A DNA stretch of 64,000 bases from a virus, in the IMG/VR virus record IMGVR_UViG_3300032117_000009, positions 60,689 through 124,688 of that record; one strand, given 5' to 3'. This document shows, in pieces, positions 4,348-32,493 of this stretch. Under the pieces are notes generated by a model. It had not been told where the DNA came from. It did not search any database and saw only the letters and a list, made by a program, of their open reading frames with translations. The position numbers and the translations under genes were made by a program. Numbering within the stretch: position 1 is the first letter of the stretch; each line of letters opens with the position of its first letter.

Positions 4348-6252
4348 TTACCAATTCTTTTTCTTTGGCGTAAATCTTTCTATGTGAGTTATGCGCTCAG
4401 GTGGGATAGGAGCTTTGGAAACAATTTCTTCTTTACCTATATCGGTAAAACCAGGTCTATCACTATGAAAATTATCTAAATCTACATGGTATAAATCAAA
4501 TTCTTGCGGAGCTGGCCTTCCACTTCTTTCATAAGTATGTTGAATATGATGTGCCCATATTTCTTTGTCTTCATCAGTTGGAGACATATATACATTTGCG
4601 CCAGGATCGATGTACCAATTGTGGTGTTCAATACCGAAAGTTTTCAAACCTTCTTGTTCAATTGATTCACGATTATGAGCAGGAGATACATGGTACGGAA
4701 GAGCTTCTTTGATAGAAGCTTCGACCTGAGGCCCAGTAATATTTGCTTGATCAATTATATATTGAGCGCCTTCAGGATCTTGTGCACCAGGAGCATGTAG
4801 ATTGCTATCTACTGGAGCATCATACCCTTGACCATTTACAGATGCCCAGAATTGCTTAATATGAGTAATCCTATCAGGTGTGATATGACCTTTGTAAACT
4901 ATTTCGTCAACACCCATGTCAGTTTTACGTTTTTCTACCGGAAGACCTTCTGTATTAACATGCCAAAGATCAAAACTATCTGCATCTTGTCGTTCTAAAT
5001 CTATATCTTCTAGATCTGGATACCCAATTGGATCATCAGAATTCCATCTATCCATTTCATGTCGTGATTTAATTTCTTGGCTATGTCTTTCATTACCTAT
5101 TTGATAACCCCAAAGATCTGCATCTTTATCAGTAGGAGACATATAAACTAATGGTTCTATACTAGATGGCCATTTATTTGATTCTTCAGTTCCTGGCAAT
5201 AAACCATTTTCTTCAATAGATTCTCTATGCTCAACTGGGGAAACATGATACGGAATAGCAGTTCTTAAAGAAGCAGTTCTTACATTTGATGGGTGAGTAA
5301 GGCCAATTTGAGTTGGAGTCATGTTTCCTGGGACATAACCAAATTGATCAGGTTCTACTCCAGGAAATTGTTTTGCCCAGCCTCTGCCTTTATAACCATG
5401 ATTATTAGATTCACCATATCTATAAACAGTTACTGGAACATGTGTAAGGCCAAGTTCTTTTGCAGCTATAATTCTATGGTTTCCTTCACCAAGATATGCA
5501 TATCTGTCATTCATATTATAGCTAACTTTTAATGGGTTGATAAAACCATTTTTCAGAAGTGAGCTTTTAATATTGTCTACTGTTGAACGACTATTACCAG
5601 TATCATAAATTGGGTCAAGACGATCAAATTCTCTAATTCTATGAACGTCTTCTAAAGGTACCCATTCAACCTTAACGTGGTTAGCATCACTTTTTTTATT
5701 TGCTTTTGTTAAAGCAATGATATTACTAGTTATATCATTAATAGAAGCATTTTTATTTAAATCTACGTGAAGATTACGAACAGTCTTTGCTTCGGATCTT
5801 GTAGATGCACTTTCTATAAAATAATTATTTAAAATTTTATCCTTGATATCATTTATTGATAAATCTTCTTTGTCAAGAGTAATAACAAAATTATTGCTAT
5901 CTTGCGGAGAAACAATAACAGGATTAAGATTATACCCCTGGAATTGAAGCATCAGGGATTGAATAATTGCTTGTTTGTTTTCTTCAATAATATAAGGAGA
6001 AAACTTACAATTATATTCTATTTTACCATTATCTTCTGTTTTTATAGTTTTAGGTCCATATCGAACATCATCAGTTCCAAGGCCTTTAATATCCCAAAAA
6101 TTGCCAGCATTCTTTTCCATCCACAAATCATGATGTTTTTGTGAACAAAAAACAAGCTCATCTAAACCATTTGAGGCTGTTAACCAATTCCAAGACGTTG
6201 AATTAGGATTTTTGCAATCAATATAATCACAATATATATTGTTAAGTGTCAT
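4348..6252 (-). CDS. Multidomain protein: N-terminal Zn finger, ParB/Srx-like domain, two tandem ADP-ribosyltransferase-fold domains
   Basis: CDYIDC..FCSQKH; IKSSLLKNGFINPL..LGEGNHRIIAAKELGLTHVPV (ParB-like); twice PYHVSP..RESIE.EGL..VYMS..EIV..I.P.RI (Tpt1/KptA/DarT-like ART fold). Confidence 0.75.
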   Translation of the reverse strand: MTLNNIYCDYIDCKNPNSTSWNWLTASNGLDELVFCSQKHHDLWMEKNAGNFWDIKGLGTDDVRYGPKTIKTEDNGKIEYNCKFSPYIIEENKQAIIQSLMLQFQGYNLNPVIVSPQDSNNFVITLDKEDLSINDIKDKILNNYFIESASTRSEAKTVRNLHVDLNKNASINDITSNIIALTKANKKSDANHVKVEWVPLEDVHRIREFDRLDPIYDTGNSRSTVDNIKSSLLKNGFINPLKVSYNMNDRYAYLGEGNHRIIAAKELGLTHVPVTVYRYGESNNHGYKGRGWAKQFPGVEPDQFGYVPGNMTPTQIGLTHPSNVRTASLRTAIPYHVSPVEHRESIEENGLLPGTEESNKWPSSIEPLVYMSPTDKDADLWGYQIGNERHSQEIKSRHEMDRWNSDDPIGYPDLEDIDLERQDADSFDLWHVNTEGLPVEKRKTDMGVDEIVYKGHITPDRITHIKQFWASVNGQGYDAPVDSNLHAPGAQDPEGAQYIIDQANITGPQVEASIKEALPYHVSPAHNRESIEQEGLKTFGIEHHNWYIDPGANVYMSPTDEDKEIWAHHIQHTYERSGRPAPQEFDLYHVDLDNFHSDRPGFTDIGKEEIVSKAPIPPERITHIERFTPKKKNW

Positions 6253-6329: not shown

Positions 6330-7112
6330 CTAATTAACGTATACAGGCGTTTGGCTTTTAATACAAATTCTATCTCTGCAATATCCACGGCATGTTTGGC
6401 ATTGATATGTTTGATAAGCAGTAGTTTTATTATGCTTAATTCCACGTTTTTGCAATTTTTTAGAACCGCATTTTGGGCATCCATCCATTATGCCATTTAA
6501 TGTAGAAACATTAGGGTGGTTAGATATCCATGGGAGAAGTTTTTTATAAACCTCTTCAAGCAAAACAACGTCTTGCTTATTATACTTTTTCATCTTATTC
6601 CAAGCAGTTTGATTACCAGCCATACAATCTTTCCAAAGCTGATAACCGCCTGTTTGTACTTTTTGCCCAATTCCTAAAATTGTTCCGAGATCATTTAATT
6701 TGTTAGAATCAAATTTGAAATGCTTACGTGCTTCTTTCAAAGTGTCAATTTGTCTATAATTTATAGGAGGGTCAAAACCATGTACTAAAAATCTTGCACT
6801 TACCTTTTTTTGATCAAAGTTATTTCCATTATGAGCAATAATTATATCAGCTTCATTAAAAAGGTTATGAAGTGTTTTTACAACTTGGTAATCATTTTCA
6901 GGATCTTTTTTATAATCTTTTTCAAAATCTGTTAATGCGACTACTTTTGTTGTTGGCTCATCAAGCCATTTATATGCAAAGCATAATATGTACCATGGCC
7001 TTACAACTTCCAAAGCTGTTTGCTCATAAACACCCCATGTATGAATTAAATTTGGAGCAGTTTCAATATCATAGAGCAGAATTCTTGCCTGATTATTCTT
7101 TGTTGTCGGCAT
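6330..7112 (-). CDS. DnaQ/RNase H-like 3'-5' exonuclease with C-terminal Zn ribbon
   Basis: LYDIET, AHNGNNFD, YNKQDV acidic motifs; CPKC...CQTC. Confidence 0.8.
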   Translation of the reverse strand: MPTTKNNQARILLYDIETAPNLIHTWGVYEQTALEVVRPWYILCFAYKWLDEPTTKVVALTDFEKDYKKDPENDYQVVKTLHNLFNEADIIIAHNGNNFDQKKVSARFLVHGFDPPINYRQIDTLKEARKHFKFDSNKLNDLGTILGIGQKVQTGGYQLWKDCMAGNQTAWNKMKKYNKQDVVLLEEVYKKLLPWISNHPNVSTLNGIMDGCPKCGSKKLQKRGIKHNKTTAYQTYQCQTCRGYCRDRICIKSQTPVYVN

Positions 7113-7210
7113 CTTCAACCTTCTGATCTTGTGAAGAATCTTCTTTCTTCACCTTTTCAGAAACTAGTATAGTACCTTTATCTGGTGTTTTTGAGTATTT
7201 GTGCATGTTT

Positions 7211-13974: not shown

Positions 13975-15399
13975 TTACGAATTCCAGTCCTTATCGAAAG
14001 GATCAAACTCATGTGAATTCTCTCCACTTATACCTGTTTCGGAAGGCTTATTACCTTGTCCATGAGAAAAACTTTCATCGCCATAGTGGATATCATCTTT
14101 ACCATGAAAACCTTCAGGTATAGCTCCAATGCCACCCATAGCAACTAGTGCAGCAACATTAGAATCGCTTAAATTATTTCTACGTTTGTTTTTACCACCA
14201 TAGTCTTCATCATAATCTTCTTCAACATCATCAGTGTCTCTACCTGCTACACCATGCTCTGGGTCAGTTTCATAACCAGGGTTATCATCATCTCCAACTG
14301 ATGCATAAAATGGGTACCAAATCTTTTGTTTATTTGATTCTATAAACTTTTTCTCCCAATCATCATCATCAAAAGCAAATGGATCTTCACCAACAATATC
14401 TTTCATATCTAGTTTTTTATCATGTTTATCTAATGCATCGAAGTCAAGATGTACCTCTTCTGATTTACAGTGAGGACATTTTGCAGGAATGCCAAATTTT
14501 TCATATCCACCAGTTGTAAGACACCCATGGCAGATCAATGGTGGCCCTTGCGGTCTGCTTGCAGCATTTTCTAAAAATGATCCTTGTTTTTGTTGCATTT
14601 GGGCTTCACCTTTATCTACGCATGTTGGGCAATAATATGGAGGAAAACCAGTTCCATCGTTCCACCAACTAGCAAATCTTGGGCTTGATGGCTCTTCTCT
14701 TCTTCTACAATTAGAACAGCGTATATAATCTTTGTCAGAAGGTTTATTTGATATAACAGGAGATCCAATCATACCTTGTGTATTATCCTCATCTGACATA
14801 ATATTTTGATCCATTTTTAATTTATCACCTGATTGTTCAAGAATTTTATTTTCTTGAACAGACCTGCGTTTCATAGACTTTTTAAACTTATTTTCCCAAT
14901 CTTCATCGTCAAAACCTTCATGAACTGGAAAATTGCTTACTTCGTTATCCTGCGAACCTGGGTTATGACCACTAAAAAAATCCATAATCATTGAAAGATA
15001 ATCAGGGTCTTTTTTACCTTTTTCTAGAACATGTTCAACATATGATTGTGCTTCTGGATTTGTTGTATCACTAAAAATGTTACCATGGTATATCTCATGT
15101 TCACCATCTATCCTGCCAAGCAAATTTGCTGGGTCGCCAGGTCTAGGATCTTCTAAACGTTTGCCAACTTCTTTTTTTAAAGCTGCTTGGGCTTCTTCAT
15201 AGCTACCATTATGTTGGTAATATGTTCTTCTTCCTTCTACAATATTATTTTTGCGATTCATGGGTCCCCTTAAATTTTCTTTGCCCATTTTCATAGTCCT
15301 TCTATCTTGTTCAGGATTGCTTTGTTGTTCATCTTCATGCGGATTTATAGCATCAGGCAGATAATAAAAATTGTCTTCATATCCCTCATAATTATCCAT
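13975..15399 (-). CDS. Modular protein with two Zn ribbons and acidic segments
   Basis: CSNC..CPTC, CHGC..CPHC separated by DDEDWENKFKKSMKRRS and DDDDWEKKFIES...FYASV linkers. Confidence 0.75.
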   Translation of the reverse strand: MDNYEGYEDNFYYLPDAINPHEDEQQSNPEQDRRTMKMGKENLRGPMNRKNNIVEGRRTYYQHNGSYEEAQAALKKEVGKRLEDPRPGDPANLLGRIDGEHEIYHGNIFSDTTNPEAQSYVEHVLEKGKKDPDYLSMIMDFFSGHNPGSQDNEVSNFPVHEGFDDEDWENKFKKSMKRRSVQENKILEQSGDKLKMDQNIMSDEDNTQGMIGSPVISNKPSDKDYIRCSNCRRREEPSSPRFASWWNDGTGFPPYYCPTCVDKGEAQMQQKQGSFLENAASRPQGPPLICHGCLTTGGYEKFGIPAKCPHCKSEEVHLDFDALDKHDKKLDMKDIVGEDPFAFDDDDWEKKFIESNKQKIWYPFYASVGDDDNPGYETDPEHGVAGRDTDDVEEDYDEDYGGKNKRRNNLSDSNVAALVAMGGIGAIPEGFHGKDDIHYGDESFSHGQGNKPSETGISGENSHEFDPFDKDWNS

Positions 15400-15401
15400 T
15401 G

Positions 15402-16040
15402 CTATCCGCCTAACAGCTTGATGTAGTCTTCTATACTATTCTTTACAAGATTGCCGTAAGGACCATGTTCATAAAGATGATTATAATATTGCGTTCCTTC
15501 AGGATCTGATTCTCTTCTAAGGTGTGGGCAATGCTTGTTGATCAAATCCATGCAGTGCTCATGGTATGGCAAATGATCACCCAGTACTTCTTTAATAGGA
15601 CTTCCCATATAACGAACAGCTTGGTCGTCATCTTCAAATTTACCACCACACATAAGGCATTTCTTATCACGGTATGATTCTGATGCATCAAGCATAATTG
15701 GATCTATGCGAGACTTTTTTTCATCTTTTGATAGCTCATCATGGTTTAAAATAGAACGTATATCTTGTACACCTTGGTTTCCAATAAAATCTTTATTAAA
15801 TTGTGGTATATCTCCTATAATTTCAAAAGTATTCCAAGGTACAGGAACTTTTTTGTAAAGTCTTCTATCTCCAGGTCTAACATCACCATTATTAGGAATT
15901 CGATAAGATTCATTATCATAATGCTGCATATCTGGTTCAGTTCTATGATGTGGTCTAGGCAAACCAGATGGGTATTCTTCCCATGGGTCAAATTCAGGTG
16001 GCTGCGAAGCTACTGCAGAAAATTGATAAATAATACTCAT
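15402..16040 (-). CDS. VPVPW...CxxCG...YHxxC...CPHL Zn-binding domain protein
   Basis: Homologous by eye to the N-terminal domain of 29460-30638. Confidence 0.75.
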   Translation of the reverse strand: MSIIYQFSAVASQPPEFDPWEEYPSGLPRPHHRTEPDMQHYDNESYRIPNNGDVRPGDRRLYKKVPVPWNTFEIIGDIPQFNKDFIGNQGVQDIRSILNHDELSKDEKKSRIDPIMLDASESYRDKKCLMCGGKFEDDDQAVRYMGSPIKEVLGDHLPYHEHCMDLINKHCPHLRRESDPEGTQYYNHLYEHGPYGNLVKNSIEDYIKLLGG

Positions 16041-16045
16041 TTTTA

Positions 16046-18001
16046 TTATGATTCTAATTCATATTTTGAAGCTATAAATTTTAGGTATTGGGTAACTTGT
16101 TTTTTATTAGCAGTAATTGGTGGAAGGCCTAAGCTTGCTGCGCCTCTTCGATAATCATTTTTTCTTGACCCTGGCAAATCATCCCAAGCAGCTATTACAT
16201 TTGCAAAAGCTTCTGGATCATCTTGGTCTTCATGGTTTGTTGTAAGAATATCATGCGTTTTTCTTAAAATATTTTCACTAGGCTTATTAACCCGCCTACC
16301 AGCATTTATATTATCAACATCTTTTTTAAACTTTCCACCAACTATACAATAATCACATGGTGTATTATCATATTTTGTGTTTTTTCTATCCAAATGGTAA
16401 ATCAAACCAGATGCTCTACCATGTTGATAACCCCTAATATATTTTTTCCTTTGAGAACCTGGCTCATTTTCTAATTCAGATTGATTTTCTGGAGCTGTTG
16501 TTTCTTCATGTTCTTGGTCAGAATTAGGTACAATATTGAAATTATTATAAAAATTATAATTTTGCGGTGAGTTTACATCAACAACTTTTTGTGGCATTAC
16601 TGTTACCTGATGATATGGTAAAGATTTGATTAAACCATTTTCATCTTGTTCTACATTTTCAACGTATGGGTTTCTGTTTACAGGAACTTGTGGAGTATTC
16701 CCTGGTGTAGTTATTACCCTAGTATTTTGATATCCATTATTAGATCTTTGTTGATTGTTTTTTGGCTCTGTTTCTTTGGAACCCCAAACATCACTGTAAT
16801 TTGGCAATTTTGCATCAGGAGTTGATAAAGAGCCATGTAGTTTTTCTATTCTTGATAAGCTTCTTTCTAAATTATTTTTCCATGTTGGATTATCAAAGAA
16901 ACTTATTCCTGCTTCGTTTGTTTGATTAACATCTACAACTTTATCTTTTTGCTTTGTTCCACTTGGGGCACCTTTATAAATAAATCTATGCACGCCTTGA
17001 ACATTATTATAACTCCAACCTCTTTTAACAGCATCTTTTACAGAGTTATAAAAACTTTGTTTAAAATCAGCTGCAATAACAACTTTTGGAATATTGCTAT
17101 GGTTAGCATAAAACATACTGTTGATCCAATTATTTTTATAAGCACGCACAACTATCTTTCCACAATGGTCACATGTGAAATCACCAGTGTCTCTGCTTAG
17201 GTGTGTTGGGCCACCACAGATTGGGCATACAATTACTGAGCTTTGTTTCATTGATTTTTTCCAATCGATTGTACTATATGGGTTGTGATAAGCTGGGCAC
17301 CGATAATCTGTGCATCTATTACTTGATGTTAATTCTCCAGTACAGCAGCTACATTTTTGAGAGTTTCTACATTTTTCATTTTGACAATTACCAAATTCAT
17401 CTACAACGTAATTTCCACAATTGTCACATCTATTTGTTTCAGTGCAACGTGGGCATAATGTGTACTGTTCACGCTCAGATAAACAATTTGGGCAATGTTC
17501 TTTTTGACAATCTGGGCAAAGATCTAAATTATCACCGTATGCGTATTCTTTCTTAAGCCAACCTTCTGGCTCTTCATCATAACCTGGTGAATAGCTCGCA
17601 TAGCAATCTACACCATCACAATAAGTTTCATATGTGCGGTAAGCTTTCTTTGGTCTGAAATGAGGGCTTTCTTCGCATTTTGGGTTGCTGCATTCATCAT
17701 ACTGGTCCATGTACTCACCACATTTGTCACATTTATAACAATTTCTGCAATCTTCATTGACACAGCAACCACTATCCAAAGGCTCAGCACATTCTCTACA
17801 ATAGTCCTCTTGGCAATGTGGGCAAAGGTGATAATTGTCATCCCAGATAGGAGATTTAGATCTTCCTGTTCCTGGGCCATTCATTGAGTTTGTATAACTT
17901 TCCGACCAACCTTGGTATCCTGCGTCATCGTCATAAGCAAATTCATCGCAACCAGGGCCATCGCAATGCAATGTATATATGTCACGAGATAAACGTTTCA
18001 T
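16046..18001 (-). CDS. Modular protein: Cys-rich Zn modules followed by an Asn/Gln-rich C-terminal region
   Basis: Two CD..C...GW...(H/D)LCP.C units with CxxC tails; linker NPYSTIDWKKSMKQSS; start moved to the ATG of the TAATG overlap. Confidence 0.8.
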   Translation of the reverse strand: MKRLSRDIYTLHCDGPGCDEFAYDDDAGYQGWSESYTNSMNGPGTGRSKSPIWDDNYHLCPHCQEDYCRECAEPLDSGCCVNEDCRNCYKCDKCGEYMDQYDECSNPKCEESPHFRPKKAYRTYETYCDGVDCYASYSPGYDEEPEGWLKKEYAYGDNLDLCPDCQKEHCPNCLSEREQYTLCPRCTETNRCDNCGNYVVDEFGNCQNEKCRNSQKCSCCTGELTSSNRCTDYRCPAYHNPYSTIDWKKSMKQSSVIVCPICGGPTHLSRDTGDFTCDHCGKIVVRAYKNNWINSMFYANHSNIPKVVIAADFKQSFYNSVKDAVKRGWSYNNVQGVHRFIYKGAPSGTKQKDKVVDVNQTNEAGISFFDNPTWKNNLERSLSRIEKLHGSLSTPDAKLPNYSDVWGSKETEPKNNQQRSNNGYQNTRVITTPGNTPQVPVNRNPYVENVEQDENGLIKSLPYHQVTVMPQKVVDVNSPQNYNFYNNFNIVPNSDQEHEETTAPENQSELENEPGSQRKKYIRGYQHGRASGLIYHLDRKNTKYDNTPCDYCIVGGKFKKDVDNINAGRRVNKPSENILRKTHDILTTNHEDQDDPEAFANVIAAWDDLPGSRKNDYRRGAASLGLPPITANKKQVTQYLKFIASKYELES

Positions 18002-19611
18002 TATGACCACAAACCTTTGTGTGGGTTTATAAAATTACGGCACCGTCTATTATTGCATTTTCCATGAGTTAATAATTGTTCGCAAGAACCACAGTTCTCT
18101 CTAGGTATATTTACTAATGTACAGTACCCTCCATCGTTTTGGCAAACGCCTTTTTTATTTTTTTCGCCACATTCTGGACATGTATAATATGAATCACATG
18201 CCTCATTATTGCATCTTCCATAATCATCTTCTGATACTTTGCACTCTGGGCAAATTTGATTAAAATGCTCTTTGCAATAGTGTCTTTCGTTGCCTAGCCA
18301 ATCATATGCATATTTCATTGGTTCATAAACAACTGGATTATCTGGGTATTTTGTTTCTGTGCATCCTGGGTAATCGCAATGTTGAATTGTGAGAGGCTCA
18401 TCAGGATAATTTGGATCATCTTCATACGTGTAATGAGCTTTTTTATCAAAACCCCAATTGATATCATCATATGCATTTGGTTTGCATGATTTACATCTAC
18501 CGCTAGGTGCTAATAAACCACCACAACCAGGGTAAATTCTATTATACCCATATGAAGGTTCTATTGTTTCTGTGCAATGAAGCGGTTTGTGTTCTTTGCA
18601 ATAGTGATAGCGTTCTCTTTCCCAATCAGACCCACCGCCGTAATAATTATTATAATCATCGTAGTTAACATCAGCTTTTTTGTCGCAACCTTCATGGTCG
18701 CATTGAGGAACTACATAAGCTATACATTCTGGGTTATAACATTCATGGTGGTCATTATTTCTAGAATTGGTATCACATTGCCTGCAATATTTGCCTCTTT
18801 CGCAATAACCATCTGAATACTTTTTATCGCCTGATGCATCATAATTTTTTTCATCTAAGCAGTTGCCAAATTTATCAACTTCGCTTCCACAAAAACATTT
18901 ATTATGCATATAACAACTGGGATTATGGCAAACTTGAGAGTCATTGTCGATAAATTCTTGTTTTAGTTCATCATCACGATATGGCTCTTCACATTCATGG
19001 CACACAAAATGATCCCAGCAATTTTTACAATAATCGGTGGAAGATTCGTCATGTCTGTGATGTTCTCTACGATGCCAACCTTCAGGCATTCGATCATATT
19101 TTGGGTTCCAACCATCAGCTTCACAATTTGGTGAGCCATCACACGTTACCCAATAATTTTTTGTGGAAATTTTAAGATTTTCTATAGCTCTTGTAGATTC
19201 TCCCAAAGAATTATATTTAGAACATTCTTTATTTTCACAATAAGCTTTTCCACTATTACTTTGATAATATGGTTCGCCACATTCTCTACAATTGTCATGG
19301 TATTCACAATTCTTATTATCGCATCTTCCACTATCTTCTAAAACTCCATGAAAACATTCCATACAGTTTGTCTTTTGGCAATCTGGGCAGATGTGAAAAT
19401 CATAAGCATCATGATTGTTTCGATGCTCTGGGAAATCAGATGCATCTTTCCAATCAGACTTCCACATATCATCTTCTGAAACTTCTTCTTCATTGCACTC
19501 TGGTCCATGAACATCACAAGTATAGCCAATATATGTTGATGCGTACCTAGGCTTATCTAAGCTATCGACAATGAGATTAGGTTGTTCAAAATTTTGTATT
19601 TTTTTACGCAT
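18001..19611 (-). CDS. Cys-rich modular Zn-binding protein (several CD..GC...W...YCxxH units)
   Basis: Same unit type as 19611-23312; internal linker DINWGFDKKAH; start at the TGATG overlap. Confidence 0.85.
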   Translation of the reverse strand: MRKKIQNFEQPNLIVDSLDKPRYASTYIGYTCDVHGPECNEEEVSEDDMWKSDWKDASDFPEHRNNHDAYDFHICPDCQKTNCMECFHGVLEDSGRCDNKNCEYHDNCRECGEPYYQSNSGKAYCENKECSKYNSLGESTRAIENLKISTKNYWVTCDGSPNCEADGWNPKYDRMPEGWHRREHHRHDESSTDYCKNCWDHFVCHECEEPYRDDELKQEFIDNDSQVCHNPSCYMHNKCFCGSEVDKFGNCLDEKNYDASGDKKYSDGYCERGKYCRQCDTNSRNNDHHECYNPECIAYVVPQCDHEGCDKKADVNYDDYNNYYGGGSDWERERYHYCKEHKPLHCTETIEPSYGYNRIYPGCGGLLAPSGRCKSCKPNAYDDINWGFDKKAHYTYEDDPNYPDEPLTIQHCDYPGCTETKYPDNPVVYEPMKYAYDWLGNERHYCKEHFNQICPECKVSEDDYGRCNNEACDSYYTCPECGEKNKKGVCQNDGGYCTLVNIPRENCGSCEQLLTHGKCNNRRCRNFINPHKGLWS

Positions 19612-22600
19612 CAAAATCCCCAGGCGTCATTATATTTTTTCTTATGCTCTTGGTCATCACCTTCGCAGTACTTACATTGATTGTAAAGAGTATCTAATTT
19701 AGGCGACCAACAATTATGACAAATTTCATCTTTCCAACACTCTGGGCAATAAATTAAACCGTAGCCAAATTTCCAGCCTTTTTTAGCTGCATTTTTTTCG
19801 TCACCGTCTACGCCACCAACATCTAAGCACTCATCGCACCTAAAACGATAATTATCATCATCCCACATAGCTTGTCTTACTGAAGAGTTTTTATCAAAAC
19901 CCCAAGCTTTATTGTAATCCTGCTTTTTTTCTTCTTTTGTTAAAGGTTCGCAATTTAAACAACGGCCTTTATCTTTATCCAATTTAGAACCACAACCATC
20001 TTCTGCATATCCATAGCAATCATTATATTCTTTATTGTTGAATTTAGCGTATAATCTTTGCTGATATTGGTCAGTGCAATAAAGATTTTTGTGCAATGGG
20101 CATACATGAGATAATGAGTCTGGGTCACCATTTTGATAATGAACTGTTTCCCAACCAATTGGATGATCCATGTCATAGTCAAGGCCATCTTCATGTTCAT
20201 TGCAGCCAGGGTGATCACAGTCAGCTCCGTATGTCATGGTAGCTTTCTTGTCAAATCCCCAAGCCTTATTGTAATTATGTGTAACAAAATCGCAATGTGG
20301 GCATATAGTAGATGAATTTTCTATCTTCCAACCGCATTTATTACATCTATTAATATCAGTGTGCTTTGGGCAGACAAATTGCTGGTTTTGTATTGTCCAA
20401 CCATTTTCAATAGCTTTTTGAACTGGCCTTTCTCTTAAACCAATTTGGAAACTATTATGGCAAATTTCATCATCACCAGTTTTGTGGTTTCCACACTGAA
20501 TCGATCTATTGGTTAGATCAGCATTAGATTTTTTTCCAAAACCCCATGCGCTATTATAAAATTTTTTGTCAGATCCTTCACATAATGTGCATTGGCCGAA
20601 TTTCCCGAGCTTTTGTCCACAACCGAACGTCATATTTAATGGGTCGTTAATGTTCTCATCTAAGTGTCTTCCTTTTTTGCAAGTTGGGCAAAAATGAAGT
20701 TCTTCAGAATCATCATAATCTAATCCTGGCGTTTTATCTTTAAAACCATTTAAACTAGCTCTACCCCATTTAGAATTAATATATTGGTCAAAATTAGGAT
20801 CATGCTCTCCACATCTATCACAAAAAATAACTCTTTCAAATGAAGCTTTTTTGTCAAAACCCCATGCATCGTTATATACTTCTGGCTGTTTGATTGAACA
20901 TTCATTGCAATAATGTGATCCATTACCTGGGTCATATCCCTCATATCTGGGGATCTCTGAATAGCAACTATCACAGAATATTTTTATAAATGCTTCTTTT
21001 GAGGCAGCAGAAGATAAGCCACGCTCATAGTCTTGCATGCTTGGCGCATCTGTTGCCATTCCATCTTTTCCAGGATCTGGGTTCGGAGTAGAGCCAAAGC
21101 CTAAACCATCTGTGTCGCCAGTATCTTGTGCCATTCCTGGCATGATAGCTTCATTGGGTTGGTCTAATGAGAAGTAATTGATAGCTTTCTTCAAACCCCA
21201 TGCGTTGTCATAATTTTTCTTTATGTTTTCGTCTAAACCATCACATACTAGGCATTGACCATATTTGCCTTTTAAATTTGTGCAATTAGGGCAACGTTCT
21301 TTTGCATGTTCTGGGCAATAATCAGAATCTTGTTTACCTAAAAACCAATTTTCAAGCGCATCTTCATCATCATGATAAACTATGTTCTTGCAGCCTTCTT
21401 CATCGCAGTGATGGAACGTAGAAGCTTTTTTATCAAATCCCCAGGCATCTTTGTAATCTTTTTGATATTCTTCGTTAGATCCATCACAAGTTTCACACTG
21501 ACCGTACTTTCCCTCTTTCCATGATTTACATCTAGGGCAGAATGTAGTATCTCCTGCACATGGAGGACATATGTAACAATCATGTTTATCATCCCAATGC
21601 ATATTAGGGCCTGGGTGAGTATCTTCACAGTGTCCACATGTATCTTCACCAAGAATATATTCAGAACAATTATCACAATAAAGTGAATCATGGTAACCAT
21701 GTACATCCCAAGGATAAATAGGCTGTAGGGTAGTTCCGTATTCATCTACTAGCTTATCGTGTTCAATGTCTTTTCCTGGAAAGCTTTTTTGTATACAGCT
21801 TGGACATTTCACTCCACCGTCACTAAGAAAACAAAGAAGATCTGGATTATGGCTAGAAGCTTTTTTATCAAAGCCCCAGGCATTAAAATAAGCTTTTGAG
21901 TCCTTGCCATCACAATCTAAGCATTGTCCAAATATGCCTGCATTTTTTTTATTAAGTTTTTTCCCACAGCCAGTTTTTAATAAATTTCTTCCTTCTTCAT
22001 CCCATTGGTCTATGCAATAAAGTTGAGCATGTTCTGGGCAAAAATCAGCTATATCTTTTTCTCCACCAGCTGTTTGCCCAGCTGTTTGCCAATTCTTATC
22101 TATTGCATCTTCAAGATCTACAATTTTATTGCATAATGGGTGATCGCAATCAATCTCTCCGGTTGAATGCATGCTAGAGTCTTTATTAAATCCCCAAGCG
22201 TCTTTGTAATCTTTTTTAACTTCTTTTTTAATTTGATCGTAACAATCTTTACAGTAAACACAATCCCCATATTTATTCATATTTTTTATATGGTGATCAT
22301 AGCAACATTTGTCACATACAAAAGAATTTTCTGAAGCTTTTTTATCAAAACCCCATGCATTTTTATAATTTTCTTCTGTATCTTCTTCTGTTGCCTCGCA
22401 ATCATCGCAAAGGCTATACTTATTTAAAAGCTCACCACATCCATGACCAATTTCATCTCTATCTACACAATGTAGTTTTTTGTGCTCTGGGCAGAAATCA
22501 TAATCTTGTTCTCCCGATAGCCAATCTCCTAATGTTTCATAGTCATCATGGTAAACAATATTATTGCACCCTTCTTCATCACAATGAAAAAATGTAGATG

Positions 22601-22985
22601 CTTTTTTATTAAATCCCCAGGCATCGGCATATTCTTTTACCAAGCCATCTTCCGTTTGATTTGAGCACCAAGTGCATTTACCATATGGTCCTAATAACGA
22701 ACCACAACCGTTTTTTGTTGTAGTAAGGTGATGATTTGCATCATCTACGCAATGCAGATCTTTATGTTCTGGGCAGAAATGTTCTGTTGCAAAATCGTTG
22801 TGCTTAAAGTTTGATCCTGAGACATTAGCTACGCCCCAATTACCCTGAGCACCATATCCTGATAGTATGCCTGATCGATCAACAACTATTTCATTCTGAC
22901 AATAACCATTGTCTCCATAATGATTACATCTTACTCTTGGAATAAACGAAGCTTTTTTATTAAATCCCCAGGAATCGGCATATTC
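18435..22985 (-). repeat. Dispersed repeat encoding (A/S/N)WGF(D/N)KKAS, 13 copies
   Basis: Plus-strand consensus gaagcttttttatcaaa(t/a/g)cccca; copies near 22948, 22600, 22333, 22178, 21856, 21421, 21181, 20842, 20525, 20241, 19882, 19611, 18435. Confidence 0.9.
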
Positions 22986-23312
22986 TTTTTCTATTTCTTC
23001 TTCTGTTGCTTCGCAATTGTCGCATTTACCATAATTGTTTAATACCTCACCACATCCATGACCAACTTCATCATTGTCTACACAATGAAGTTTCTTGTGC
23101 TTTGGGCAGAAATGTTGATCAGAAGCTGTAGCGTTGCCCCATTTATTTTCTTCTAGGGCATAATATTGACGTATTCTTCCTCTATTATCAATGCTTTCAT
23201 TTTCATTGGGGCAATAAGTTATTCTGCCACCATCTTCATCCACATGATCACAGATAGCCTTGGTTACAAGCGATGCTTCTTTAGGAGCGATATCATCACA
23301 GGAATCATACAT
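19611..23312 (-). CDS. 1233-aa polyprotein-like array of Cys/His Zn-binding modules joined by WGF(D/N)KKAS linkers
   Basis: 12 Y..AWG(F/L) linkers counted by eye; start moved from 23360 to the ATG overlapping the upstream stop (ATGTATGA). Confidence 0.9.
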   Translation of the reverse strand: MYDSCDDIAPKEASLVTKAICDHVDEDGGRITYCPNENESIDNRGRIRQYYALEENKWGNATASDQHFCPKHKKLHCVDNDEVGHGCGEVLNNYGKCDNCEATEEEIEKEYADSWGFNKKASFIPRVRCNHYGDNGYCQNEIVVDRSGILSGYGAQGNWGVANVSGSNFKHNDFATEHFCPEHKDLHCVDDANHHLTTTKNGCGSLLGPYGKCTWCSNQTEDGLVKEYADAWGFNKKASTFFHCDEEGCNNIVYHDDYETLGDWLSGEQDYDFCPEHKKLHCVDRDEIGHGCGELLNKYSLCDDCEATEEDTEENYKNAWGFDKKASENSFVCDKCCYDHHIKNMNKYGDCVYCKDCYDQIKKEVKKDYKDAWGFNKDSSMHSTGEIDCDHPLCNKIVDLEDAIDKNWQTAGQTAGGEKDIADFCPEHAQLYCIDQWDEEGRNLLKTGCGKKLNKKNAGIFGQCLDCDGKDSKAYFNAWGFDKKASSHNPDLLCFLSDGGVKCPSCIQKSFPGKDIEHDKLVDEYGTTLQPIYPWDVHGYHDSLYCDNCSEYILGEDTCGHCEDTHPGPNMHWDDKHDCYICPPCAGDTTFCPRCKSWKEGKYGQCETCDGSNEEYQKDYKDAWGFDKKASTFHHCDEEGCKNIVYHDDEDALENWFLGKQDSDYCPEHAKERCPNCTNLKGKYGQCLVCDGLDENIKKNYDNAWGLKKAINYFSLDQPNEAIMPGMAQDTGDTDGLGFGSTPNPDPGKDGMATDAPSMQDYERGLSSAASKEAFIKIFCDSCYSEIPRYEGYDPGNGSHYCNECSIKQPEVYNDAWGFDKKASFERVIFCDRCGEHDPNFDQYINSKWGRASLNGFKDKTPGLDYDDSEELHFCPTCKKGRHLDENINDPLNMTFGCGQKLGKFGQCTLCEGSDKKFYNSAWGFGKKSNADLTNRSIQCGNHKTGDDEICHNSFQIGLRERPVQKAIENGWTIQNQQFVCPKHTDINRCNKCGWKIENSSTICPHCDFVTHNYNKAWGFDKKATMTYGADCDHPGCNEHEDGLDYDMDHPIGWETVHYQNGDPDSLSHVCPLHKNLYCTDQYQQRLYAKFNNKEYNDCYGYAEDGCGSKLDKDKGRCLNCEPLTKEEKKQDYNKAWGFDKNSSVRQAMWDDDNYRFRCDECLDVGGVDGDEKNAAKKGWKFGYGLIYCPECWKDEICHNCWSPKLDTLYNQCKYCEGDDQEHKKKYNDAWGF

Positions 23313-24057
23313 GGCAATCACAACCGCATGGTGGGCATGAACAATTACCGCCCTTGTCAAAGCGGTTACAGCTAGAAAGGTGGTCTATTTCAGGATAATA
23401 ATCATTGCAATTACAATTATGGCATAAATCATATGCACAATCTGGGCAATAGTCCTCAGACCCTTCATTTACCCATTCATTATATGGATCTAAACTGTTA
23501 TTATTTTTAGCACCACATCCATCACAAATAGTTAAAATGTGTAATTGCTTAGACGATTCTCTCCAAGAGTTCTGGTAATCATTGGTAAGCTCTGTACCAC
23601 CAGGTCCTTCGTTATCAATGTATCCACCGCAATCGGGGCACTCATTGTACTCATAAGCGTAATCAATGGCTTGCTTAGATATTTGATTCTTATCGCAATG
23701 TGGGCAAGTGTATGGTTCGCCAGCAGCAATCTTTACAGAAGCTGTATGGGTATCATCATCGTCATCTTTACGTACAATAGTAATTTTAGGCCACTTATGG
23801 CCATCAGAAGGCTTATCTGTGCCTTCAGGCCATTTTTGTGGAGCTGGATTAGGATTAGGAAATACTTCTGACCATGGGCCAGTCATCTTTTCATAATCCT
23901 GATCGTCAATATCCTTAAGACGATTAATCATATGATCAATTTCAGGATCAAATTGATTTTCTCCAGGGTGTGCTTGATTCATATGATCAGCACGCTCTTG
24001 TAACGTATATCCTGCCCAGTCACAATGGGAGCAGCCTAGCCCAGGCTCATACTCCAC
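23305..24057 (-). CDS. Modular protein: C2H2 finger plus several Zn ribbons
   Basis: CSHC...HMNQAH; CPHC..CPDC; CDGC..W..DYCPDC; linkers HTASVKIAA and NSWRESSKQL. Confidence 0.8.
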   Translation of the reverse strand: MEYEPGLGCSHCDWAGYTLQERADHMNQAHPGENQFDPEIDHMINRLKDIDDQDYEKMTGPWSEVFPNPNPAPQKWPEGTDKPSDGHKWPKITIVRKDDDDDTHTASVKIAAGEPYTCPHCDKNQISKQAIDYAYEYNECPDCGGYIDNEGPGGTELTNDYQNSWRESSKQLHILTICDGCGAKNNNSLDPYNEWVNEGSEDYCPDCAYDLCHNCNCNDYYPEIDHLSSCNRFDKGGNCSCPPCGCDCHV

Positions 24058-24065
24058 TGGGCTGG

Positions 24066-24893
24066 CTATTTTGGGGAATTCCCCCTAAAGTTATTTGGGT
24101 AATTAGGGGCGCTTTTAGGCATTTCATAATGAGTTTGCGAATTAACATCTTGTGGATGTGGTGGTGATGAAACAAGGTTTGGCTCATTATAAAGAAGTCC
24201 TTGCTTATAACCCTGATAGTAATCCATGGAGAGATTAGCCATTCCCTCATCCATTTCTTTACCAGATGTAGCATCGGAATAACCTTTATAAAATACATCG
24301 GAGTCAGAAGCTATTTTATTCATTGTCTTATAATAGTCTTCTGCTGTCCATTTAGATGCAGTAGAAGTAGGCATTTGTGCTGTTTGTGGCATATTAGCTG
24401 TTTCTGGCATGTCTACGTTTGAAACAGCGGAAGCGCCTTCTTGAACATCTGGAGAAGACATTTCTGGGCTAGGCATTACATCTGCTATTACCCACGAAGA
24501 AGCAGATACAAGAATGCCCTCAGGGTTTTCTTCAGTATCGCTCATCACTGTGCCAGCAATGGGTCCAAGGTCCATGTACATTTCATCATTAGCTGTATCA
24601 TTTACAGCAAATCGGTTATGGTTACCTTGCTCAGAAATCTTTTTGTGCGTATCCCAACAGCAACCACAACCAACTTCCATTGGGCAAACGTGGTCATCAT
24701 GGAAGTTATCTTCGGCATCACGACAAGTTACACAAGTATTATCCAGCAATGGATGTGAACTATATGCACAACTCATGCTTGGGTAATTAGTTGGGTCACC
24801 ACAATGCTGACAGATAGGACCATCTCCTAAGCTAGCATATGCTTTAAAACTGTCTTGGCCCTCTAGCTCAGACCAGCGTGGCGGTAATGTCAT
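24066..24893 (-). CDS. Modular protein: Zn module, low-complexity spacer, Y.GY..G helical module
   Basis: CQHC..CVTC..CPMEVGCGCC; FYKGYSDA...YYQGYKQG; AGGAG RBS. Confidence 0.75.
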   Translation of the reverse strand: MTLPPRWSELEGQDSFKAYASLGDGPICQHCGDPTNYPSMSCAYSSHPLLDNTCVTCRDAEDNFHDDHVCPMEVGCGCCWDTHKKISEQGNHNRFAVNDTANDEMYMDLGPIAGTVMSDTEENPEGILVSASSWVIADVMPSPEMSSPDVQEGASAVSNVDMPETANMPQTAQMPTSTASKWTAEDYYKTMNKIASDSDVFYKGYSDATSGKEMDEGMANLSMDYYQGYKQGLLYNEPNLVSSPPHPQDVNSQTHYEMPKSAPNYPNNFRGNSPK

Positions 24894-24995
24894 TCTATTC
24901 TCCTTGGACAGGCAAAAATCTTGGCACCAATGATTTCTATTACAAAGGACGACTTGTTGATAATTTTAGTTGAAATTCGCTTAAAATGCTAGTTT

Positions 24996-25526
24996 CTATG
25001 ACCAATCAATATTATTGTATGGGTTCATGCATTTGATGGCTTGCTTATGGCCTTTAGTTATAGCATCAGGAACTATTTTCTCAACAAACTTATGTTTTTT
25101 CATATAAGCGTCAACAGCTTCAGGGTTATCAATGTTGTTAGGTTGCTCTTGAAGCATTTTGTAATAAAGATTTTTGCTTGCTTTAGAAAGTTCGTGACCT
25201 ATGTGATCAACCAGGTGATTACCACTTAATGATTTTCCGTCTAATCCCCATTTATGGTCTTCTGCATATTCAATGTCTTCTGGTGAAAATGAACGTAATA
25301 TTTCTTCAACGTCATTGTTATTAATACACCAATTATTATGACATCCATCAAATGGTGTATTACGCCCTAACCCACGTCTTAAATCTATTGGGTTATCACA
25401 TCTTCCACATGTTTCTTCATATTTGTGAACAACTCTGCCATGGTAACTATTGTACTCAAATGGCATATCGTCGTAATCACTATCTTTGTAGTTTATACAA
25501 TTTGGAATTTCATTCCATAAACCCAT
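24996..25526 (-). CDS. Hypothetical protein with CGRC...C...WC motif
   Basis: ORF; start moved to the ATG 1 nt after the upstream stop; ends NPYNNIDWS. Confidence 0.7.
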   Translation of the reverse strand: MGLWNEIPNCINYKDSDYDDMPFEYNSYHGRVVHKYEETCGRCDNPIDLRRGLGRNTPFDGCHNNWCINNNDVEEILRSFSPEDIEYAEDHKWGLDGKSLSGNHLVDHIGHELSKASKNLYYKMLQEQPNNIDNPEAVDAYMKKHKFVEKIVPDAITKGHKQAIKCMNPYNNIDWS

Positions 25527-25527
25527 G

Positions 25528-26040
25528 TTACCAAAGCTCCCCATCATCAGAAATCTTGAGCTTGTTGAGTCTTCCTCTTGACATATCCCATGGATTGTTA
25601 TACCCTAGGTCCCTTTTCTCATTTCTGTCCCATACCATTTTGTTTTCTGGTCTATATGGGTAAACATCATCATGTGGGCTAAAGAATGTATAGTTTTGTT
25701 CATTACAGGGTATATTCCCACAAACAAACATACCATGTTTACGATGAAATGCTTCTAGCTCATCATTGTCGTTTAAATCTTTGATTTCATGGATATCTTT
25801 TGGATGGCTACCCAGAGAACCACGATAAAAATCATTTATATATTCATTGCGTTCATGTTCGTTATACCCTTGGAAATTATCCTGTTTGTGTGCAATATAT
25901 TCATCAATTGGCACTGGTGATACTGTTGAGCATCCACACTGAGGGCAATTAATCTTTTTACCACTCTCGCTATACCAATTATCTGACCAGTTGCCACCCT
26001 GGTTATTAAGCGCCCAATCGCCAATTTCCATTTTTTGCAT
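25528..26040 (-). CDS. Zn-ribbon protein (CPQC...CGNIPC)
   Basis: Split CxxC pairs; ends DDGELW. Confidence 0.7.
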   Translation of the reverse strand: MQKMEIGDWALNNQGGNWSDNWYSESGKKINCPQCGCSTVSPVPIDEYIAHKQDNFQGYNEHERNEYINDFYRGSLGSHPKDIHEIKDLNDNDELEAFHRKHGMFVCGNIPCNEQNYTFFSPHDDVYPYRPENKMVWDRNEKRDLGYNNPWDMSRGRLNKLKISDDGELW

Positions 26041-26042
26041 GA

Positions 26043-26951: not shown

Positions 26952-26953
26952 TA

Positions 26954-27826
26954 TTAATACCGGCCCTTATTCTTCTTAGAATTCTTATACAGCTCTTCCC
27001 AAATGTCAGGGTTTTCCTCTGACTTTTTGTAATTCTGTATAATACTATTCATATCTAGCTTGTCAGCATAGTTTAACAGAGAATTCTGTGATTCTGAAGA
27101 ATTATTGTGGCCTTCAAATATTTTTGTACGTGAGAAAGAAGGACGAATTCTGCTCTTCATTTGTTTAGATGGGTGGAATACGATACTGTAAGCCTTTTCA
27201 CCTGGCTTTAAACCAAAAGGAACTTGTTGCTGTTGCTTTTGTTGCTCTTGTTGCTGTTCTTGCTCTTGTTGCTTTTCTTGCTCTTGTTGCTCTTGTTGCT
27301 CTTGCTCTTCTGGCTCTTGTTCTGGATCTTGTTCTTGCTCTTCACGCTCTTTTGGCTGTTCTTTGCCAGGAAGAAAGTCATAAACAATATCGCTAGGGTC
27401 TTTTGCATTATCAGCTGGACGCTTAATGAATGCACCAGGACCGTGTACGTTAGTACACTCTTCCTTCCACAGGTCTAAAGCTTCATTAGCGTCTGTTGTG
27501 GTACTATACTTCTTTGTGGCTGAGAGTTGAGTGATATGTGAATTTGTATTTGGCTCAATGATGTGCCAACCAGTGATAATGTGGTATGGAGGCATAGTTG
27601 AGAAATTAGTTTTTACGTTGCCATCATGCTGGTCATAACCAGGAACGTGCATTTGACGAATATTCAAACCCTCATTGTTCTCAATGTCTGGGTGACCATC
27701 TACTACGTGGAAGTGTGGGGTTTCCTTTTTCCCATAACAAGAGAAGAAAGGACCTCTCCCACTACTTGCTGGTGCATAAGGCTGTTCATCGCCATCATCA
27801 GATGCATATACGTAATGTAAACTCAT
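26954..27826 (-). CDS. RGPFFSC-domain protein, paralog 2, with Gln/Glu-rich insertion
   Basis: Tandem paralog of 26043-26951; EQEQQEQQEQEKQQEQEQQQEQQKQQQQ insert. Confidence 0.75.
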   Translation of the reverse strand: MSLHYVYASDDGDEQPYAPASSGRGPFFSCYGKKETPHFHVVDGHPDIENNEGLNIRQMHVPGYDQHDGNVKTNFSTMPPYHIITGWHIIEPNTNSHITQLSATKKYSTTTDANEALDLWKEECTNVHGPGAFIKRPADNAKDPSDIVYDFLPGKEQPKEREEQEQDPEQEPEEQEQQEQQEQEKQQEQEQQQEQQKQQQQVPFGLKPGEKAYSIVFHPSKQMKSRIRPSFSRTKIFEGHNNSSESQNSLLNYADKLDMNSIIQNYKKSEENPDIWEELYKNSKKNKGRY

Positions 27827-28323
27827 TGATCATACCATTCTTTTTGAGCTTTTTTAATATTTTTCCATTGAACATCATGAAGTCGGTGGCGAACTTCACC
27901 ATTTCTTATGTCTTTTTTAATTTTTTTGATTTTCCACCATTTTAACATCTGATGATGTTTGTTGTCTGGGTCGTCAGGATCTACTGATCTTCCCTTATCT
28001 GATAAATCTACGAGCTTTTCTTTTGAAATAACGTAAATATATCCGTGATAACCGACTTCTTGGAACTTGCCTTTGAACAATCCAGCAGGAAGTTTGCGCC
28101 CAGTTTCTTCTTCCCACTCTCTCACTGCTGCTTGGAACGGGTCTTCACCCTTTTTTACATGCCCACCAGGAAATTCCCATACTCCTGGGCTGTTCAATGG
28201 AAGCTCAGAGTGTGACCTTCTCTTAAGCAATAGAACATTACCAGTGTCCTCTGCTTTTACACAGAGTCCAGCTAGAACATCAGTATCATCAGGTGCTTTG
28301 AGTGCGTATCTCATATCAATCAA
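27823..28323 (-). CDS. NUDIX hydrolase
   Basis: Intact Nudix box GGHVKKGEDPFQAAVREWEEETG preceded by VLLLKRR...WEFPGG. Confidence 0.92.
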   Translation of the reverse strand: MIDMRYALKAPDDTDVLAGLCVKAEDTGNVLLLKRRSHSELPLNSPGVWEFPGGHVKKGEDPFQAAVREWEEETGRKLPAGLFKGKFQEVGYHGYIYVISKEKLVDLSDKGRSVDPDDPDNKHHQMLKWWKIKKIKKDIRNGEVRHRLHDVQWKNIKKAQKEWYDQ

Positions 28324-30638: not shown

Positions 30639-30641
30639 TAG

Positions 30642-31682: not shown

Positions 31683-31684
31683 TA

Positions 31685-32419
31685 CTAGCCCTTAAGCTTT
31701 TGTATGTCAGCTTGAAGGTCGGATAGACGGAAATTGCGTAGCTTTCCAGCCTCTACAGCCTCAGGAGTGATTATTGCCCATGTCTCTTCGAGGTAGCACT
31801 GAAACCACTGCTTTGTTACAGCTTGGATCTCTCCCCAGGTTACAACATAAAAGTACTTTTCATCATAACCAACGATGATGACACAGTGGCCACCTTCAAT
31901 CTGCTGGTCAGCTGGAGTACCAGTAAGTGCCCATGGCTTGCCCTCTTGGAACTGCTGCATGCAAGGGGCAGGGACAAGAATACCGATGTAACAGAAGCCA
32001 AAGGCATTGACTACTGACTTGATCTCATCGAAGTCCTTGTGGTCAGTAGGAGCGTAAGCAGCGATCTTTGATCCAAATAGACCCTCTGATTCCCAATGGG
32101 CGAGAAGATCAGCTTCAATAGCACCTTGGTCGGCACCATTGGTATACTGGAGGTAAGCGTTAACTACGTCTTGGTCGTTAAGAAGCTTTTCTTTAACGCC
32201 ATCGAGCTGAGCTACCGCCATCTTAGCGTGGTAAGCTCCAGCGAATGTGCAGTCGCCATACTTATCATTACCAAGCATGTACCAATCTGGTACAGCAGGA
32301 GCACCAAGAGTGGCAGGGGCTTTTGGAAGAGGATTTTCCTGGTAATAAGCTAACATGTGTAGACCATCTGGCCTAACAGCTGGCTTACGACCTAAACGAC
32401 CTGCAATACGCTCTGACAT
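31685..32419 (-). CDS. Papain-like (C1-type) cysteine peptidase
   Basis: GNDKYGDCTFAG (Cys), GGHCVIIVGYD (His), YVVTWG (variant of NSWG). Confidence 0.8.
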   Translation of the reverse strand: MSERIAGRLGRKPAVRPDGLHMLAYYQENPLPKAPATLGAPAVPDWYMLGNDKYGDCTFAGAYHAKMAVAQLDGVKEKLLNDQDVVNAYLQYTNGADQGAIEADLLAHWESEGLFGSKIAAYAPTDHKDFDEIKSVVNAFGFCYIGILVPAPCMQQFQEGKPWALTGTPADQQIEGGHCVIIVGYDEKYFYVVTWGEIQAVTKQWFQCYLEETWAIITPEAVEAGKLRNFRLSDLQADIQKLKG

Positions 32420-32493
32420 TTTTTATCCTCTCGACAGTGATACAAAGGGTTCTCCCTATGTATTGTGAGAGCGTTCAATAAATAAATGCCTAG

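Follow-up and report, generated by a model that had tools for sequence, protein, structure and literature searches.

A phage gene for a chain of shuffled cysteine-rich modules with a repeated tryptophan–lysine junction, possibly a head-associated cargo polyprotein

The window analyzed here, 64,000 nucleotides (nt) long, is the second half of a 124,688-bp IMG/VR virus record, which carries direct terminal repeats, is estimated to be complete and represents an uncultivated phage related to Bxz1, E3 and phage G. It contains a gene for a protein of 1233 amino acids (aa), in which mostly cysteine-rich modules are strung together by copies of a short junction peptide, and this gene is the subject of our analysis. 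The gene had been singled out by an earlier note, produced by a model from the DNA sequence alone, whose coordinates and basic observation we confirmed; the strand, which had not been stated, is the minus strand, as for nearly all genes of the phage. In the order of transcription, the replication genes, including that of a DnaE-type polymerase, are followed by the gene for the large terminase, a block of about 30 kb containing the gene for the 1233-aa protein, and finally the head genes. The latter lie outside the window and code for an intein-interrupted portal, a 219-aa prohead protease, a 540-aa scaffold-like protein, a cement protein and the major capsid protein.

The open reading frame (ORF) of the 1233-aa protein starts with ATG and ends with the codons for ...YNDAWGF, followed by TGA (Table 1). 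An alternative TTG start 48 nt upstream would extend the product to 1249 aa. The ATG form overlaps with the upstream gene by 8 nt and is the one present in the protein collection used (P0002, a single record of identical sequence from this contig). The protein contains 90 Cys, 51 His and 221 Asp plus Glu residues, and 11 of its 12 units are rich in Cys, the segment from aa 708 to 771 being devoid of it. The sequence Y-x-x-[AS]-W-G-[FL] occurs 12 times, with the Trp residues at aa 115, 232, 320, 373, 479, 624, 705, 817, 923, 1018, 1137 and 1231. The 12 linker copies described in the earlier note, about 50 to 145 aa apart, were thus recovered with a spacing of 53 to 145 aa, including the last one, which is truncated by the stop codon, and the thirteenth copy reported for the next gene was found in the downstream ORF (DDINWGFDKKAH, W codon at 18456). 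When all six frames of the window were scanned, WGF or WGL followed by D/N/G-K-K was confined to the gene of the 1233-aa protein, apart from this one downstream copy. In the phage proteome of 39,830 aa, the only other matches to W..[DNGKE]K[KNDQ] were the tail of the prohead protease and one unrelated WDEDKD sequence.

Table 1. Coordinates of the 1233-aa gene, its junctions and neighbouring genes in the window. A slash marks a putative cleavage position.
Feature	Position	Strand	Remarks
1233-aa gene	19611..23312	minus	11 Cys-rich modules, one Cys-free module, 12 junction motifs; P0002 identical
N-terminal 13 residues, MYDSCDDIAPKEA/S	23274..23312	minus	sits where relatives have a leader; ends K-E-A/S
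Junction 1, YADSWGFNKKAS	22947..22982	minus	
Junction 2, YADAWGFNKKAS	22596..22631	minus	AlphaFold2 model: Y..AW at helix end, GFNKKAS coil
Junction 3, YKNAWGFDKKAS	22332..22367	minus	covered by AlphaFold2 model
Junction 4, YKDAWGFNKDSS	22173..22208	minus	
Junction 5, YFNAWGFDKKAS	21855..21890	minus	
Junction 6, YKDAWGFDKKAS	21420..21455	minus	
Junction 7, YDNAWGLKKA/INYF	21177..21212	minus	entry to Cys-free module
Cys-free module, aa 708-771 (KKAINYFSLDQPNEAIMPGMAQ ... DYERGLSSAAS)	21000..21191	minus	
Junction 8, YNDAWGFDKKAS	20841..20876	minus	
Junction 9, YNSAWGFGKKSN	20523..20558	minus	
Junction 10, YNKAWGFDKKAT	20238..20273	minus	
Junction 11, YNKAWGFDKNSS	19881..19916	minus	
Terminal half-junction YNDAWGF	19614..19634	minus	stop codon directly after
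537-aa Cys-rich gene (50 Cys)	18001..19614	minus	4-nt overlap with stop of 1233-aa gene; leader ...DKPRYA/S; ends ...GLWS
654-aa Cys-rich neighbour	16046..18010	minus	same zinc-module type, variant Trp junction (NPYSTIDWKKSMKQSS)
250-aa Cys-rich gene (19 Cys)	23305..24057	minus	upstream; weak sub-threshold Lar-type zinc-ribbon match
634-aa ParB-like protein	4348..6252	minus	PHROG E = 3e-9; Pfam ParB_N E = 0.0015, below Pfam cut-off
NUDIX hydrolase	27823..28323	minus	E = 5e-16; among block genes without known function
RNase H-superfamily exonuclease-like protein	6330..7118	minus	E = 3e-13; among block genes without known function
244-aa protein, first gene of the block	31685..32419	minus	phrog_19005 (unknown function, E = 3e-27); sub-threshold Peptidase_C39_2

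A common plan emerged when 15 modules, taken from this phage and from two relatives, were aligned. It consists, in this order, of a C-x(2-4)-C knuckle, a loop with an invariant Trp, a C-P-x-[HC] motif, a G-C-G ... C-x-x-C stretch and an acidic helix ending in Y-x-x-A-W. The invariant columns comprise two junction Trp, one internal Trp, six Cys and one Pro, and the mean column identity is 30%, which agrees with the previous description of a linker far better conserved than its homologous but divergent cargo. Most modules carry two putative zinc sites, as judged from these sequences. The suggestion that module halves had been recombined was also borne out: module 3 shares 67% identity with module 7 and 19% with module 1 in its first half, and 69% with module 1 and 39% with module 7 in its second half.

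In an AlphaFold2 (AF2) model of module 3 and its flanks (mean predicted local distance difference test score, pLDDT, of 72), a helix is followed by the Trp, a coil, beta-hairpins and another helix. Y..AW forms the C-terminal end of the helix and G-F-x-K-K-A-S a coil, so that the junction, as modelled, is composed of two halves, a helix end (Y-x-x-A-W) and a basic coil (G-F-[DN]-K-K-A-S). A Foldseek search of the module fold against the PDB gave a best E-value of 1.4 with just weak rows for cross-brace fingers, and an Atlas search with module 3 gave no usable match. No significant sequence or fold match to known zinc-finger or zinc-ribbon families (RING, PHD, LIM, AN1, Lar) and no Pfam match was obtained. 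The possibility, raised in the earlier note, that the linker is an integral packing helix of a known solenoid repeat family does not apply: the same junction closes unrelated kinds of modules, the units range from 53 to 145 aa, one segment is free of Cys, and searches for repeat and zinc-finger families gave no match.

The 1233-aa protein has no family in Pfam or PHROGs, a tblastn search against 50,697 phage records produced no match, and patterns of the entire protein gave no result in an initial scan of viral contigs. A phmmer search against 1.84 billion representative proteins yielded 16 proteins at E <= 0.001, all of them metagenomic. These relatives consist of 5 to 12 units of the same module types in other order and number; the note had proposed a search for such arrays. 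Conservation in the family is highest in the Cys-free module, a once-per-protein element that is entered via K-[KEQT]-A/[IL]-N-Y-F and left via ...S-A-A-S. P0134 and P0135 carry it at their N-terminus, but are otherwise different proteins. A presumed similarity of this module to a stretch of the scaffold-like protein (EAMVPGV ... GLSSMA) was rejected, as a hidden Markov model of 16 modules missed both the scaffold and gp77 of phage E3 (best E = 0.086, with an unrelated ORF).

Within the family, the junction is an autonomous element that is combined with modules of different kinds. It closes zinc modules, a non-zinc module of about 300 aa (P0009-P0011 and a 1099-aa protein of the phage termed G001) and a helical-repeat module (L008). 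Modules of types D, E and H occur either internally after a junction or as the first of a chain, after a shared leader of the sequence M[TS][DN]PWE[ED]L..K[QK]A[ST]. This leader is itself junction-like and precedes three different module types, and module E starts identically after it in P0004 and P0005. The chains of the family end in ...AWGF, ...AWGL, ...AWK or ...AWGFNA. The junctions are alike within one protein and unlike between phages, reading WGF[DN]KKAS in the phage studied here, WGLKKKAS in P0004 and P0005, WGFGKKAS in P0007, P0009 and G001, F[LM]PKKAS with Phe for Trp throughout in P0128, WAPK.. in P0129 and P0130, and [IL]W[KN]KK in P0131 and L008. The G001 phage was the sole case in which co-variation with the protease was compared, and it is not discriminating, as both its protease tail and its junction type agree with those of the phage of the window.

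The earlier note had taken synonymous variation in the linker DNA as a sign of selection on the peptide. This holds for the codons of Y, A(-1), G, D and S, the diversity of which is at least as high as expected from the codon usage of the gene, but not for the remainder, where F is encoded by TTT in 11 of 11 cases, K-K nearly always by AAA and the second Ala by GCT in six of seven cases. Between the copies of the junction, DNA identity amounts to just 61-81% over 27-49 nt. Because of this divergence and of the codon variation at Y, A, G, D and S, we conclude that the junction is conserved mainly at the peptide level. The further proposal that the linkers serve as recombination points fits the outcome, namely shuffled order, number and halves of modules, but long identical DNA at the junctions was not found. 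The uniformity of the junctions in each phage, in spite of diverged modules and diverged junction DNA, suggests a single trans-acting partner for all the junctions of a given phage.

The 219-aa prohead protease matches phrog_18299. In a Foldseek search with its AF2 model (pLDDT 86.8), T4 gp21 (5jbl) was matched at a probability of 0.99-1.0, followed by the assemblins of Kaposi's sarcoma-associated herpesvirus, human cytomegalovirus, pseudorabies virus, varicella-zoster virus and herpes simplex virus 2 at probabilities of 0.75-0.97. The protease of this phage can thus be assigned to the gp21/assemblin fold. PDB sequence searches with the protease and with the 244-aa protein of the block found nothing. 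The protease ORF and the 540-aa ORF of the scaffold-like protein overlap by 8 nt (L004:7900-10174, G000:C1:47900-50174), and in Rhodococcus phage E3 protease and scaffold are fused in one protein of 895 aa (gp77).

The junction sequence K-K-A-S fits the pattern [KR]-x-A-[ST], and we compared the observed numbers of this pattern with those expected from shuffling within each protein for several gene sets. It occurs 17 times vs. 4.0 expected in the head module (4.3-fold), 13 times vs. 4.9 in the block around the gene (2.7-fold) and eight times vs. 0.6 in the 1233-aa protein, with 11 vs. 9.8 occurrences in the tail genes and 6 vs. 7.9 in the early genes. An excess was also present in the block proteins of related phages (12 vs. 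3.1 in L007, 10 vs. 2.8 in L011).

Sites of this or a similar type are located at several positions of the head proteins. The scaffold-like protein contains R-T-A/S 16 aa before its C-terminus, and its counterparts show R-T-A/S at 17 aa (Myrna), R-T-A/G at 18 aa (Alice) and R-I-A/A at 17 aa (E3) from the end; these are sequence patterns at which cleavage is putative. In the capsid protein, R-L-K-E-A/T at aa 33-38 closes an N-terminal extension which is absent from the 282-aa capsid protein of phage G, and the capsid proteins of actinophages read R-L-A/G or R-[LM]-G/G at that place. The portal has motif sites near both termini. The protease itself contains G-F-L-K-K-A/E in a disordered N-terminal stretch (pLDDT below 50) ahead of the folded domain, which may be compared with the junction core G-F-D-K-K-A/S. 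Its four closest relatives (86-93% identical) show GFLKKA, SFLKTA, GFIKKA and GLVKTA there, a fifth one (81%) STRFA, and more distant ones S-L-A/A-N and similar sequences. The G001 phage has one of these protease relatives as well as a multi-module protein of the present type. Neither the [LI]-x-E motif of T4 nor the [SAG]-x-E motif of the phiKZ group occurs in the junctions, the conserved residues of which are K-K-A-S. A paper on phage G (PMC12484599) contained no information on capsid cleavage sites.

Because the junction most likely carries a site for the head-maturation protease, the chain is probably capsid cargo which is cut into many small proteins. On the whole, we favour, tentatively and at somewhat less than even confidence, the reading that the 1233-aa protein is a head-associated cargo polyprotein processed at its junctions. 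Both functions which the earlier note had proposed for the linker thereby receive partial and entirely indirect support. A protease site in each copy is consistent with the gp21/assemblin fold of the protease, the fit of K-K-A-S, the enrichment of [KR].A[ST], the sites at the scaffold ends and the GFLKKA/E sequence of the protease. A docking or targeting signal is consistent with junction-like leaders that stand before any type of module and with chains that end in AWGF, AWGL or AWK.

In the proposed mechanism, the basic coil G-F-[DN]-K-K-A-S would contain the sequence that the prohead protease recognises (roughly [KR]-x-A/[ST]), and the Trp half (Y-x-x-A-W) may help to bring the chain into the prohead, as may the N-terminal leader. 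Inside the prohead, cuts would be made at up to 11 junctions, at the N-terminal K-E-A/S and at the borders of the Cys-free module. From this we infer that about a dozen small acidic putative zinc proteins would be released there and ejected with the DNA at infection. Exchange at the junctions and at the C-P-E-H knuckle within the modules would provide each phage with a different set. The neighbourhood, with other Cys-rich multi-module proteins carrying the same or variant Trp junctions and with a ParB-like protein, fits a role as cargo. A more far-reaching version, which we regard as possible but doubtful, holds that the polyprotein is a combinatorial library of mini-effectors packed by the phage, that the junction both targets it to the prohead and is cut by the assemblin-fold protease at a herpesvirus-like Ala/Ser bond, and that junction and protease specificity co-evolve.

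Several observations weigh against processing of a head-associated cargo. The gene is located about 26 kb from the portal gene, outside the classical head genes, and a scan of positions 14000-33900 for promoters and terminators remained at chance level, with no sign of a late gene. The pattern [KR]-x-A-[ST] is short and of low information, and the gene sets counted stem from a single genome and two partial relatives. L008, which has different junctions, shows no excess (5 vs. 3.7), and junctions 4, 9 and 11 of the 1233-aa protein lack the Ala, reading KDSS, KKSN and KNSS. A conserved helix end with a hinge could moreover be retained for folding or spacing alone. Finally, the protease ends in E-S-A-W-F-L-D-K-K-M-V-P-Y-A, of which A-W-[LF]-L-[DQ]-K-K is kept in more than 90 relatives and resembles the D-A-W-G-F-D-K-K of the junction. 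This resemblance was noticed post hoc and may be due to chance, because the AWFLDKK stretch is modelled as a confident beta-strand of the fold and the E3 fusion protein reads AVVSRVL there; we regard it as a lead and not as evidence. The idea that AWFLDKK represents the P-side of an ancestral release site was not supported in that register, since the fused forms (E3 gp77 and P0112) have K-x-A about seven residues further on and AVVSRVL in the aligned stretch.

The strongest alternative, which we consider rather unlikely, is an unprocessed multidomain protein in which the junction is a structural connector, consisting of a helix cap and a short basic hinge, that would be retained because each module requires an identical spacer and would have spread by duplication and recombination. 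Such a protein would act as a whole, e.g., as an array of zinc fingers with multivalent binding to DNA, RNA or a host protein. This would agree with the modelled position of Y..AW at a helix end (pLDDT about 70-75) instead of in a long disordered stretch, with the uniform codons in the 3' half of the junction, and with the three junctions that lack the Ala of the putative site. A mere connector is less easily reconciled with the fact that the same junction closes unrelated folds and also serves as an N-terminal leader where there is no upstream module, or with junctions that remain alike within one protein and differ between phages despite their diverged DNA. The K-x-A-S half, in addition, is part of a motif whose enrichment is specific to the head and block proteins.

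The junction may alternatively be mainly a docking motif which is not cut, so that 12 acidic-helix-Trp peptides would tie the chain to one partner. This could be the scaffold or the inside of the capsid, in which case the motif would serve capsid targeting, or else a hub protein of the host once the chain has been ejected. Trp-containing tails are indeed frequent in the proteins of the block, of which 13 of 35 have a W within their last six residues vs. 11% expected (p = 3.7e-5), the leaders of the relatives retain the Trp, and the conserved ESAWFLDKK tail of the protease would fit as well. The tail proteins, however, also show an excess of C-terminal Trp, albeit a smaller one (10 of 45, p = 0.005), the difference between the block and the rest reaches just p = 0.016, and the protease tail is predicted to be an integral strand. 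P0128, moreover, has Phe instead of Trp throughout. We consider uncut docking an improbable explanation. Processing by another enzyme, for which the weakly papain- or C39-like 244-aa protein and a cytoplasmic host protease acting without packaging are candidates, is very improbable: the 244-aa protein belongs to a conserved phage family, opens the block and matches Peptidase_C39_2 (E = 0.0069, 17.4 bits), but this match is below the 24-bit cut-off and a solved relative was not found in the PDB sequence search, the junction lacks a C39-type double-glycine site, and K-K-A-S matches the motif common to the capsid protein, scaffold, portal and prohead protease.

The gene of the 1233-aa protein is embedded in a block of genes between terminase and portal which code for Cys-rich proteins or for proteins of unknown function (Table 1). 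The 537-aa protein encoded directly downstream contains one full junction (YDDINWGFDKKAH, the copy mentioned above), and its homologue P0136 has three. This downstream gene (L011:7909-9342 in a related phage) also starts with a 24-aa leader which is kept across phages, M(M)R[KRE][KE]I[QK]..EQPN[LI]IVDSL[DE].P[RK]YA[ST], and which ends in a basic-x-Ala-Ser/Thr putative site just ahead of the first zinc module. The Trp tails of the block proteins (window 1-32419, minus strand) include AWGF, GLWS, IDWS, DWNS, YNWF and IDWKK, and acidic-Trp motifs recur inside these proteins (e.g., DEDWENKFKK, DDDWEKKF, FDPWEEY). The 244-aa protein encoded at the beginning of the block is a possible second processing enzyme. 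Beyond the block, the 1173-aa portal gene (L004:10879-14400, G000:C1:50879-54400) contains Hint/intein splicing domains and a LAGLIDADG homing endonuclease at about aa 278-619.

The capsid protein of the phage shares 63% identity with its counterparts in cluster C mycobacteriophages and Rhodococcus phage E3 and also matches the solved capsid protein of phage G (6wkk, E = 1e-30). Because the G+C content of the phage is 37%, its host is probably not an actinobacterium. Capsid protein, protease and DnaE-type polymerase tie the phage to high-G+C actinophages (cluster C mycobacteriophages, E3, Stormageddon) as well as to Bacillus phage G, and such ties at a G+C content of 37% indicate that the head module is common to phages of very different hosts.

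If the junctions are cut as proposed, a single gene would deliver many small proteins into the host together with the DNA, and junction and protease would constitute a portable tag by which foreign proteins could be loaded into capsids. Such cleavage would also define the specificity of gp21/assemblin proteases from a branch that is widespread (Bxz1-like, E3-like and phage G-like phages) but uncharacterised, and the parallel to herpesviruses would extend to the Ala/Ser site itself. The modules represent a reservoir of unknown small putative zinc proteins, which are probably aimed at host functions or defences. Even in the case of an uncut chain, a 12-residue junction that joins unrelated modules, is uniform in each phage and varies from one phage to another is an unusual instance of concerted evolution of a linear motif.

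The best-known phage proteins to be compared are the internal proteins IPI-III and Alt of T4, which are single proteins with one leader each and are cut after [LI]-x-E. Their leaders target them to the capsid and are removed by the prohead protease gp21. The system described here has a protease of the gp21 fold, too, its short N-terminal leaders end in a putative protease site and may serve targeting, and candidate ejected effectors such as the ParB-like protein are encoded nearby. In contrast to T4, the putative signal is repeated 12 times in one chain, the site is of the basic-x-Ala/Ser type, and no sequence similarity was found.

The release and maturation sites of herpesvirus assemblins follow the consensus (V/L/I)-x-A/S, and the maturation site is located about 25 aa from the C-terminus of the scaffold. 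The likeness to the phage comprises the fold, Ala at P1 and Ser at P1' of the putative site, and the R-[TI]-A-[SGA] sequences 16-18 aa from the scaffold end. The arrangement of protease and scaffold is also herpesvirus-like, being fused in E3 gp77 and split into two overlapping ORFs in the present phage. Unlike the hydrophobic P3 residue of the herpesviruses, that of the putative phage site is basic, and we know of no multi-module cargo polyprotein in herpesviruses.

The inner-body and ejection proteins of phiKZ and SPN3US are separate gene products, most of which are cut at one or a few [SAG]-x-E sites. In these phages, many head-internal proteins are encoded outside the core head genes, cut at a short motif by the gp21-type proteases gp175/gp245 and ejected into the cell (PMC10052503, PMC7411985). 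The present protein differs from them as an array of zinc modules with a repeated junction. Polyvalent proteins, on the other hand, contain 2-15 effector domains per chain, vary between relatives and have been predicted to undergo packaging, injection and, in some cases, proteolytic release, and ParB-like domains occur in packaged proteins of this kind (Iyer et al. 2017, PMC5512222). Polyvalent proteins carry known enzymatic or anti-restriction domains and often their own peptidase, whereas the 1233-aa protein consists of variants of one module type with a repeated junction and no recognisable domain. Because it has no known effector domain in Pfam or PHROGs, it is not a polyvalent protein in the sense of Iyer et al.

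Compared with the systems of the T4 and phiKZ type, the differences consist in another type of site, which is closer to the sites of herpesvirus assemblins, its regular repetition in one chain, and a cargo of shuffled modules from one family. If its junctions are cut, the 1233-aa protein would be, to our knowledge, the first cargo polyprotein of a double-stranded DNA phage with a regular array of processing sites.

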